Shown in pieces: positions 52,999 to 54,492 of a stretch of DNA of 64,000 nucleotides. Both the position numbers and the translations under genes were made by a program. Positions within the stretch are counted from its first letter, which is position 1. Every line of letters begins with the position of its first letter. Below the pieces are notes generated by a model that was not told the DNA's origin, did no database searches, and worked only from the letters and a program-made list of their open reading frames with translations. This DNA comes from an uncultured Elusimicrobia bacterium. GTDB lineage: Bacteria; Elusimicrobiota; Elusimicrobia; 2-01-FULL-59-12. The stretch spans positions 1,760,001-1,824,000 of the forward strand of contig OY969767.1 in assembly GCA_963702895.1 (NCBI GenBank). The letters run 5' to 3'.

Positions 52999-53081
52999 GA
53001 TTCCTCCGTTATATGATTTCTGGAACACCCAGGGCCATAATACAAAAAAGTCCATGCGTCGGTGAGCTATTCACAAGCTGA

Positions 53082-53201
53082 AAGGGTCGCACTCCCGGGG
53101 CAGGACTCGGGCGCCACACATCAGGCGCCCGCCCGACCGTCGTGTGTCGGGCGAACCTGCAACCCTGCGAGGATGTTCTTCAATGCACGTCGGCCATTGC
53201 C
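53082..53201 (-). repeat. Direct repeat copy 1 (GIY-YIG 3' end, tRNA-Asn 3' fragment with double hairpin, trailer)
   Basis: 120 nt matching 53394-53513 with one mismatch (53120 vs 53432). Confidence 0.9.
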
Positions 53202-53381
53202 GCTTTTTAGATACTTTTCACGTTTAAGCGCTTCGTGAAGAGTCGGCCAGGGTTCCTTGAAGACCAACTGATAGGTGCGCTTGTTAGTCTTGTGTTCTGC
53301 TAATCGACGAATAAGATCTTCGGTTAAACCAGTATAGAGCTTGCCCGTTTTCTGACACCGAAGGATATAGATCCAGTACAT
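53121..53381 (-). CDS. Small GIY-YIG nuclease (86 aa), copy 1
   Basis: MYWIYILRC..LYTG.TEDL.RRL.EH..ALKREKYLKSGNGR; ATG at 53381. Confidence 0.88.
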   Translation of the reverse strand: MYWIYILRCQKTGKLYTGLTEDLIRRLAEHKTNKRTYQLVFKEPWPTLHEALKREKYLKSGNGRRALKNILAGLQVRPTHDGRAGA

Positions 53382-53393
53382 TTCAAAACACTG

Positions 53394-53513
53394 AAGGGTC
53401 GCACTCCCGGGGCAGGACTCGGGCGCCACACGTCAGGCGCCCGCCCGACCGTCGTGTGTCGGGCGAACCTGCAACCCTGCGAGGATGTTCTTCAATGCAC
53501 GTCGGCCATTGCC
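53394..53513 (-). repeat. Direct repeat copy 2 (GIY-YIG 3' end, tRNA-Asn 3' fragment with double hairpin, trailer)
   Basis: Matches 53082-53201 at a 312-nt offset. Confidence 0.9.
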
Positions 53514-53693
53514 AGACTTTAGATACGCTTCTCGGCGCTGTGCTTCGGATTTGCTCGTACGAGCTTCCTTGTGGACTAACTCGTAGTATGGCTTCTTGAC
53601 TCTATGTTCGGCAAGACGTCGGTCTAAGTTTTCGGCGAAACCGACATACAACTTGTGAGTACCTTTACACCGAAGAATATAAACCCAGTACAT
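53433..53693 (-). CDS. Small GIY-YIG nuclease (86 aa), copy 2
   Basis: MYWVYILRC..LYVG..NL.RRL.EH..AQRREAYLKSGNGR. Confidence 0.88.
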   Translation of the reverse strand: MYWVYILRCKGTHKLYVGFAENLDRRLAEHRVKKPYYELVHKEARTSKSEAQRREAYLKSGNGRRALKNILAGLQVRPTHDGRAGA

Positions 53694-53724
53694 TCCTAGA
53701 GTGTCTAGAGAGTAAAGGGTCGCA

Positions 53725-53796
53725 CTCCCGGGGCAGGACTCGAACCTGCAACCCTCCCGTTAACAGCGGGATGCTCCACCATTGAGCTACCCGGGA
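53725..53796 (-). tRNA. tRNA-Asn (GTT), no encoded CCA
   Basis: TCCCGGG TA GCTC AATGGTG GAGC A TCCCG CTGTTAA CGGGA GGGTT GCAGG TTCGAGT CCTGC CCCGGGA G folds as a full cloverleaf. Confidence 0.95.
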
Positions 53797-53823
53797 GTGC
53801 GACCCTCATTGTCATTCTATCTT

Positions 53824-54018
53824 GGCAGGACTCGGGCGCCACACTACAGGCGCCCGCCCGCCTGTTGTCTGGCGGGCGAACCTGCAACCCTCCCGTTAAC
53901 AGCGGGATGCTCCACCATTGTCCGCCACTACGACTATGGCGGATCCGCCGAAGCCGCAGTGGCGGAAGCTCCGCCACACTTCAGGCGGATGCGCCTGCCT
54001 TGTGGCGCATACCCGGGA
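53824..54018 (-). pseudogene. Interrupted tRNA-Asn copy carrying three double-hairpin insertions and lacking most of the 3' acceptor strand
   Basis: Removing 53834-53877, 53921-53966 and 53970-54009 restores sequence identical to the intact tRNA from its 5' end through the T-stem. Confidence 0.9.
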
Positions 54019-54243
54019 GTGCGACCCTCAAAGTCATTCTATCTTGGCAGGACTCGGGCGCCAGGCGCTAACCCGTTAGGCTATGATTGTATCTTGGCTT
54101 TTAAGCTTTGAGGGGTGATTGTAGAAAAAATGTTGATTTCTCCACAAAAACCGGGGGCCCATAAATCATGGAGGCCTATTGGGAGTGGGAATTTAGCCTC
54201 TTGGTCTATAGCAAGCACGAGGAAGATAAGACATAAACATGGT

Positions 54244-54492
54244 ATGCAAAGACAATCTTGTTTGCGGTGTCACGGACATTTACAGGCGAAAAGCGTAGAG
54301 CATCCCTACTGGAACGGCTCGAAGCTTGTGGCGCTCATTGAGGACGTTCCCTCACTCGTCTGTGAGACCTGCGGATTTCAGCACTTCGAGGAGAACGTCG
54401 AATCCAGCCTTCAGACCCTGGTCCAAGACTACATTAAAATGGGGACCCTGTTCCCCATTCCGAAAACGTCTTACCGAAATCTGTCGTCCTAA
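54244..54492 (+). CDS. YgiT-type zinc-finger protein (MqsA-like antitoxin N-domain)
   Basis: CLRC..IEDVP..VCETCG; start at MQRQSC. Confidence 0.8.
   Translation: MQRQSCLRCHGHLQAKSVEHPYWNGSKLVALIEDVPSLVCETCGFQHFEENVESSLQTLVQDYIKMGTLFPIPKTSYRNLSS

Follow-up and report, generated by a model that had tools for sequence, protein, structure and literature searches.

Twin-hairpin inserts in spare tRNA copies beside tiny GIY-YIG genes of an Elusimicrobia genome: possible scars of nuclease-made breaks

An intact tRNA-Asn gene and its interrupted copies

The 64,000-nucleotide stretch of DNA analysed here (the window), from an uncultured Elusimicrobia bacterium, contains an intact tRNA-Asn(GTT) gene (53725-53796, minus strand; 68.9 bits in Rfam, also called by ARAGORN), which is the sole Asn call among the 54 ARAGORN calls in the 2.72-Mb genome. 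Upstream of it, sequence comparison reveals a spare copy interrupted by three inserts (53824-54027, minus strand), which runs from a 12-base leader through the tRNA 5′ end to one base beyond the T-stem and has no 3′ acceptor strand. Taking out the three inserts leaves 77 bases that are identical to 53732-53808, that is, to a stretch of the intact gene plus 12 leader bases; a preliminary description of this DNA had held that deletion restores the exact tRNA, which is right for the 77 bases and wrong for the end that the copy lacks. Downstream of the intact gene, on the same strand, lie two genes for 86-residue GIY-YIG proteins: gene 1 (53433-53693; PF01541, E 2.8e-10), a single-domain member of what we refer to as the short-loop subclade, and gene 2 (53121-53381; PF01541), which is 71% identical to gene 1. 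Behind each gene comes a 3′ fragment of tRNA-Asn on the minus strand (53397-53478 and 53085-53166, respectively) with a 44-base twin hairpin in its T-loop (53421-53464 and 53109-53152), the same type of insert as in the T-loop of the spare copy, as had been described. The stop codon of each GIY-YIG gene lies inside the twin hairpin of the adjoining fragment.

What survives of a further, decayed copy (54046-54078, minus strand) is 11 bases of the T-arm, the remnant of a collapsed hairpin and a few bases from the anticodon arm; the junction of T-arm and spacer at which it ends is the one seen in the triple-insert copy (53811-53830). This remnant appears to be an older duplicate, and the upstream tRNA-Asn copies probably arose as tandem duplications joined at a GCC microhomology. 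We also note that the leader and trailer of the intact gene (53716-53724 and 53797-53806) are complementary and lengthen the acceptor stem, as they do, with other bases, in the relatives G005, G007 and G009, and that an open reading frame divergent from the tRNA (54115-54492, plus strand) has a weak match to a YokU-like antitoxin (E 2e-5, below the cut-off). A promoter scan gave one match against 0.6 expected and none at the tRNA, and the idea that the T-arm fragment is a source of a -35 box was dropped.

The three inserts of the spare copy are 44, 46 and 40 bases long, the lengths and positions first reported for them. The 44-base insert (53834-53877) interrupts the T-loop at C56-G57 and reads CG, unit, CG, inverted unit, CG, with two 20-base units that have 8-base loops; the target bases CG are thus repeated on each side and mirrored in the middle. 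Like this one, each of the 44-base T-loop inserts at the locus can slide by two bases, which amounts to a 2-base CG target duplication. The 46-base insert (53921-53966) lies in the D-stem between T12 and C13 and has a slide of 0 and no target duplication, while the 40-base insert (53970-54009), between A9 and G10, has a slide of 1, a duplication of 0 or 1 base (A) and a T in the middle. The earlier view that there is no obvious target duplication therefore fails at the T-loop, is arguable for the 40-base insert and holds for the 46-base insert. The loops at the locus (ACACATCA/ACACGTCA/ACACTACA/ACACTTCA) vary, the stems are kept and carry CGCC..GGCG cores, and a GCC-to-GAC change is compensated across the stem, all as had been noticed; to this we add the correction that the 46-base insert, with its 11-base loops, belongs to a second class of hairpin. 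Only the T-loop insert folds at minimum energy as the two abutting hairpins that had been ascribed to all three; in each D-arm insert the two units are inverted repeats of one another, and the insert therefore forms a single rod.

The assembly is a single contig from an uncultured organism, and no public run contains the genome (best share 0.07; eight of 24 runs compared with the locus show relatives only), which might raise the concern of an assembly or sequencing artefact. The inserts differ from one another in loops and stems, however, and the same kind of insert is present in five other genomes and in contigs of independent runs, so that an artefact is already refuted by independent assemblies and we regard it as next to impossible. 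We also find it very improbable that the inserts are selected RNA structures, such as removable introns or a tRNA-like decoy or antitoxin RNA in which the mirrored bases serve to close stems. It is true that the triple-insert copy folds very stably (z -7.1) and precedes the tRNA on the same strand, and that contigs of relatives with the T-loop insert are found in three RNA libraries and in one library guessed to be RNA (depth 2-4, with DNA carry-over possible, and no gauge of splicing, level or strand). Nevertheless, those contigs retain the insert, and its removal would not yield a tRNA because the 3′ acceptor strand is absent. Unlike a tRNA with an intron, moreover, the locus gave only tRNA matches, and no intron match, in an Rfam search. 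Many tRNA genes have copies of this kind, cut short in different ways, repeated in tandem and decayed, and four of the six relatives that have a gene neighbouring the locus in common with G000 (G003, G004, G009 and G010, where G001-G010 are relatives in the same family, G000 is the genome under study and C1 its contig) have neither an insert-bearing copy nor a nuclease gene at the locus.

A genome-wide family of twin hairpins and its junction rule at T-loops

Each insert consists of two directional hairpin units of 18-23 bases in inverted orientation, and both units read 5′-stem-AC.. loop away from the 3′ end of the target. Defining a unit by a CG[CA]C core and a directional loop of either 8 bases (A[CG]A[CA]..) or 10-11 bases (ACT[AG]..), we find 176 units of the first class and 40 of the second, 216 in all, against none in one order-4 Markov simulation; the units are not the product of chance. 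The same-sense inverted orientation holds in 61 of 67 pairs of neighbouring units (two pairs with two-way loops being counted twice). A wider definition gives 81 twins in the genome, and 43 of these lie within 700 bp of a tRNA gene (48 tRNA calls) where 1.7 would be expected, a figure that tandem arrays inflate. The other 38 are away from tRNA genes, many of them nested in other palindromic repeats. Twelve of the 81 fall in long open reading frames, which cover 81% of the genome, although this comparison is crude, since six-frame reading frames include false ones. The suggestion that these are tiny, non-autonomous, paired hairpins is borne out by a genome-wide and tRNA-enriched family. The overlap of target bases at the ends of the 81 twins is 2 in 30 cases, 0 in 20, 1 in 17, 3 in seven, 5 in one and negative in six, and so the stagger varies with the site.

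Many tRNA genes in this genome have partial copies of their own sequence on their flanks, in which there are twins or, where the anticodon arm should be, a single hairpin. Intact tRNA genes appear to be nested in older, hairpin-bearing copies of themselves, often with short inverted repeats on both sides of the intact gene (G000:C1 1666506-1666880 for Glu, 909333-909590 for Pro and 2042420-2042775 for Arg). Single hairpins, some of them with palindromic loops, replace the whole anticodon arm in partial copies at C1 positions 1701267, 2042475 and 2184311, and they do so as well in other families of the class (L038, L041, L045 and L052); they may be the product of two added units annealing to each other. 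Tandem arrays are made up of repeats of the 3′ ends of tRNA-Val(GAC), in 120-base units (C1 1171090-1171695), and of tRNA-Gln(CTG), in 82-base units (2455056-2455461). Two small open reading frames lie between hairpin-bearing 3′ fragments of tRNA-Gly(CCC) (C1 1908794-1909640; in L081, 940-1388), and by eye they look like a HicB/HicA toxin-antitoxin pair, which would be a cargo different from the nuclease. Immediately behind tRNA-Ala(GGC), just below C1 1700842, there is a long run of ATCC/ATCT tetranucleotides.

To describe the junctions we used an insert finder that was blind to hairpins: it required only that removal restore the neighbouring tRNA exactly and left the middle of the insert unconstrained. 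Among 44-base T-loop inserts, to which the junction count is confined, with other lengths left out, there are 26 distinct examples at 21 tRNA loci in four genomes (14 in G000, 2 in G001, 2 in G005 and 8 in G007). All 26 have the layout XY, unit, reverse complement of XY, unit, XY. The middle bases are CG in 17 of 17 inserts at CG targets and TG in nine of nine at CA targets (Fisher p 3e-7 for genomes that are kin and not independent), and the left copy of XY equals the target in 25 of 26. Stems of 6 bp are perfect in 50 of the 52 units, with outer stem bases that vary in nine ways. In a loose-pattern scan of 38 of the 64 parts of a species collection, together with virus contigs, 117 loci were recovered, most of them noise (98 with fewer than three of the four stem parts paired). 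Seven were fully paired twins, all in Elusimicrobia or Elusimicrobiota records and all mirrored; three had already been counted and four were new, one of these with a CA target and a TG middle. Among the 12 loci with three of four stem parts paired, 11 were not mirrored, with no tRNA called nearby, and neither of the two pattern matches in the virus contigs was paired.

These junctions bear on the possibility that pre-formed twins move whole, in the manner of REPINs or MITEs, with middle and end bases that belong to the element and choose the target by pairing, or else spread by gene conversion between tRNA fragments. The constant 44-base length at T-loops would suit such movement, as would the combination of terminal inverted repeats with a 2-base duplication, and whole-twin copying is evident in the tandem arrays and in two neighbouring tRNA-Pro inserts, which have one unit in common and differ by 2 bases in the other, so that whole twins can also be copied. 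Against this, no identical pair of units occurs at two different tRNA genes among the 26 inserts, and one and the same 20-base unit is found on either side, paired with various partners, at CG as well as at CA targets. Duplication length, which a MITE would keep fixed, ranges from 0 to 3 depending on the site (2, 0 and 0-1 at the three sites of the locus), even though inverted units are present as in a MITE. The junction bases are set by the target, and the earlier idea that the hairpins insert as fixed, pre-formed pairs is not supported; movement of whole twins as the general route seems to us unlikely.

Tiny GIY-YIG genes and their distribution among genomes

The products of genes 1 and 2 match PF01541 only, and across 14 sequences Y5, R26, H30 and E55 are invariant and Y16 is nearly so. 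The 86-residue protein is predicted to form one domain with a disordered tail; it scores 22 bits against TIGR01453, for which the cut-off is 56. Foldseek gave no match at E 0.001 or better, and a word-index protein search found three relatives only. A profile reaches 7,257 clusters at E 1e-10, UPF0213-like proteins included. Both genes belong to a subclade with a loop about seven residues shorter, from which we take its name. The genome has ten PF01541 matches: six lie beside tRNA genes, two are flanked by Ssn motifs, one is UPF0213-like and one is UvrC-like. Five of the six tRNA-adjoining genes are in the clade of genes 1 and 2, two of them broken, and the sixth, at tRNA-Gln, is of another branch. 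The broken clade members are at C1 580611-580847 and 1652975-1653151, and one of the two, with an internal TGA, lies between tRNA-Ile and tRNA-Ala. The Ssn-motif-flanked genes (C1 543339 and 554279) suggest, together with a DUF559 gene at 1904956 and additional families of palindromes, that several nuclease-repeat systems coexist in this genome.

Across the class, 15 of 18 loci with homologues are within 400 bp of a tRNA gene, and in many of them partial copies contain CGCC..GGCG hairpins. Of 44 homologue loci in metagenomes, 15 are within 350 bp of a tRNA gene, always on its strand, and eight have duplicate fragments; this breadth outside the class rests on one protein query. The 8-base-loop twin pattern occurs in six of 151 genomes of the class, all of them in this family (54, 17, 12, 3, 1 and 1 matches), and a reversed control gave none. 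T-loop twins are found in four of the 11 genomes of the family (22, 9, 4 and 2 matches), and the short-loop subclade is present in exactly these four (G000, G001, G005 and G007), an agreement that would arise by chance once in 330 if genomes were independent, which must be read knowing that they are kin, that several are incomplete and that the subclade split was drawn after the counts were seen. Single units with 8-base loops number 22-57 in these four genomes versus 1-12 in the other seven, and a twin lies within about 100 bases of all five short-loop genes that these four genomes contain. Picked by its twin alone, the genome behind L112 contains a short-loop gene adjoining tRNA-Gly together with a partial copy that bears a hairpin. 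From the genome behind L085, where the loops of the twin are 5 bases long, only a partial nuclease gene of another type was recovered, and G003, G006 and G008 have one to three twins with no short-loop gene found. Where no gene of the wider clade was found (G004, G009 and G010), units of both classes number 2, 2 and 5, versus 13-121 in the other eight genomes. Copies of the hairpins are present throughout the genome and the nuclease subclade accompanies them across genomes, the two points on which the preliminary description had staked its reading. As to the second class, units with 11-base loops number 13-64 in G000, G001, G002, G006 and G008 and 0-5 in G003, G004, G007, G009 and G010, and they are commonest in genomes with a full-length tRNA-linked nuclease, with the exception of G005, which has 21. 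It is possible that these units and the full-length nuclease form a second nuclease-hairpin pair.

At the locus itself, G007, which belongs to another genus, has upstream a partial copy of its own, with a twin inserted between A9 and G10 as in G000 and flanked by the same junction bases, and its downstream GIY-YIG gene ends at a T-loop twin. The events in G007 and G000 look independent, because the leader of the G007 copy is its own. In G005 the upstream copy has hairpins, and there is no nuclease gene.

An alternative is that the inserts are the work of another enzyme, whether the reverse transcriptase of the genome primed at a nick, a HUH/RAYT transposase since lost or the break-repair machinery of the host, and that the GIY-YIG genes simply occupy the same tRNA niche or employ the hairpins as marks that protect. 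The genome holds three 507-residue reverse transcriptase reading frames, fold-back templated insertions are described in the covered parts of two reports on eukaryotic break repair (PMC11724301, PMC5728401), and one DNA contig of a relative joins a hairpin-bearing fragment to a tRNA with no nuclease gene between them. The reverse transcriptase genes are more than 20 kb from tRNA genes, however, and the only Y1 HUH match found in the genome is a fragment of 55 residues (E 1e-4) with no units within 300 bp; the hairpin-poor genomes G004 and G010 hold two and six Y1 matches. With no intact enzyme of this type found in the genome, the earlier suggestion of RAYT-like mobilisation stands as an analogy only. 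Taken with the match between the short-loop subclade and the genomes that have T-loop twins, this makes an origin by another enzyme rather doubtful.

Possible scars of nuclease-made breaks

A homing endonuclease of the SegB type combines its GIY-YIG domain with a further DNA-binding part; the 86-residue protein, with its single predicted domain, has no such part. SegB of phage T4 is free-standing, recognises the T-loop motif GGTTCRANTCC and leaves mostly 2-nt 3′ ends (PMC2330249, as far as covered), and it drives tandem amplification of tRNA and segB genes (PMC13096335, likewise in part). The present locus is like those of T4-like phages in having a GIY-YIG gene beside tRNA genes, a putative T-loop target and duplication of tRNA and nuclease genes, and by analogy its 2-base duplication fits a SegB-type double-strand cut with 2-nt 3′ ends. 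SegB, however, is a phage gene about 2.5 times longer (a 687-bp cloned fragment) that spreads by homologous repair, and the covered parts of these reports mention no hairpin inserts (PMC2330249, PMC13096335), whereas the 86-residue proteins are encoded in the chromosome and twin hairpins interrupt the very T-loop motif.

In their domain structure genes 1 and 2 are like Ssn (cd10448), a single-domain GIY-YIG protein of about 90 residues with catalytic Tyr, Tyr and Glu. SsnA cuts single-stranded DNA a few bases 5′ of its own directional hairpin, and, as in the present system, the ssn gene is flanked by its own directional hairpin repeat (NTS/SRM), which is present in many copies genome-wide; the part of the Ssn report covered here demonstrates cutting and not insertion, and mentions neither tRNA nor duplication (PMC11893778). 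In contrast to Ssn, the locus has no match to the SRM pattern: of 147 SRM matches in the genome, none lies in 53050-54110 or within 300 bp of the six tRNA-linked genes, and it is two other genes that carry SRMs. In a tree, this SRM-flanked pair, a stand-in for Ssn since SsnA itself is absent, is separate from the 29-row clade of genes 1 and 2 (support 99/98). The nearest solved relatives are stand-alone Slx1-like/UPF0213 GIY-YIG proteins (PDB 1zg2 and 1ywl; PMC1564403, in part), with a sequence match at E 6e-15 and a weak fold match at E 1e-3; UPF0213-like rows form a separate branch that, unlike genes 1 and 2, has no tRNA or hairpin context.

The hairpins, for their part, resemble REP dimers or REPINs with their RAYT (TnpA-REP) partners, which the covered sections of two reports describe as inverted doublets of short palindromes, including heterodimers, some nested, and non-autonomous (PMC3116915, PMC3733652), and all of these features recur here. 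The twins differ in that their units have no GTAG or CGTC tag and are flanked by target bases, in that there is no spacer and the junction mirrors the target, and in their strong tRNA targeting. Mitochondrial double-hairpin and repetitive hairpin elements are likewise short, paired and seemingly mobile, but are organellar and are reported to be without flanking duplications, with no partner enzyme known in the part of the source covered (PMC2800124, citing Allomyces work). By analogy, the present system may resemble SegB in what it targets, and Ssn/SRM or RAYT/REPIN in that a nuclease goes together with a hairpin of its own. In the literature searched, which covers few subscription journals, no description of such twin-hairpin inserts was found.

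On balance, we think that the twin hairpins in spare tRNA copies may well be scars at breaks made by the neighbouring tiny GIY-YIG nucleases, a reading drawn from sequence in which the link to the nuclease is one of co-location and of co-occurrence among related genomes. The preliminary proposal that the hairpins mark sites already cut survives in this sense of a scar. The candidate nuclease would cut the DNA of tRNA genes in loops and at stem bases. In the T-loop, a cut with a 2-base 3′ stagger around C56-N57 would leave the 3′ overhangs XY and its reverse complement, and each 3′ end would then gain one hairpin unit in the same sense, either through ligation to a donor that has been cut immediately 5′ of its hairpin or through copying of a donor. 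A cut of the SsnA type, 5′ of a directional hairpin, would supply the hairpin-bearing 5′ end for such a ligation. GIY-YIG enzymes are hydrolytic, so the joining would need host enzymes. The new end would fold back and copy the overhang, giving the mirrored bases, and the two copied ends, now complementary, would anneal and be filled in; fold-back copying and annealing would account for both the observed product layout and the perfect stems. Blunt or 1-base cuts could give the 46- and 40-base inserts. Repair of the break would probably also create the tRNA duplicates, carrying the nuclease gene along, and inserts would persist only in duplicates because insertion into the sole tRNA-Asn would be lethal.

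Several observations count against a scar. The D-arm inserts, two of the three at the locus, have little or no duplication, and among the 81 twins the many with zero or negative overlap and the 38 away from tRNA genes weigh in the same direction, as do the two tRNA-Pro inserts, the twins of G003, G006 and G008 without a short-loop gene and the genome behind L085. We put forward only tentatively, and with less confidence than we have in the scars themselves, the broader idea that an 86-residue tRNA-targeting GIY-YIG nuclease and a 20-base hairpin constitute a minimal selfish system. In such a system no element would be moved whole: each end of a staggered break would be capped by a hairpin, fold-back would generate sticky ends, the product would read target, hairpin, mirror, hairpin, target, and nuclease subclades might pair with 8- and 11-base loop codes across thousands of clusters.

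The inserts are real, and by analogy they would represent a variant within the nuclease-plus-palindrome systems. We know of no transposition or homing route that would leave the target duplicated on either side of the insert and, in mirrored form, at its centre. If confirmed, the junction signature would point to a new route of DNA insertion. Since the intact tRNA adjoins, the empty site can be read to the base, and the junctions are therefore a direct footprint of the reaction; the candidate enzyme, donor and target are each smaller than 100 residues or bases, which makes the reaction testable in vitro. The finding addresses the question of how short bacterial palindromes originate and spread outside RAYT systems, and such a system would account for the swarms of broken copies that make tRNA genes confusing to annotate in these genomes.
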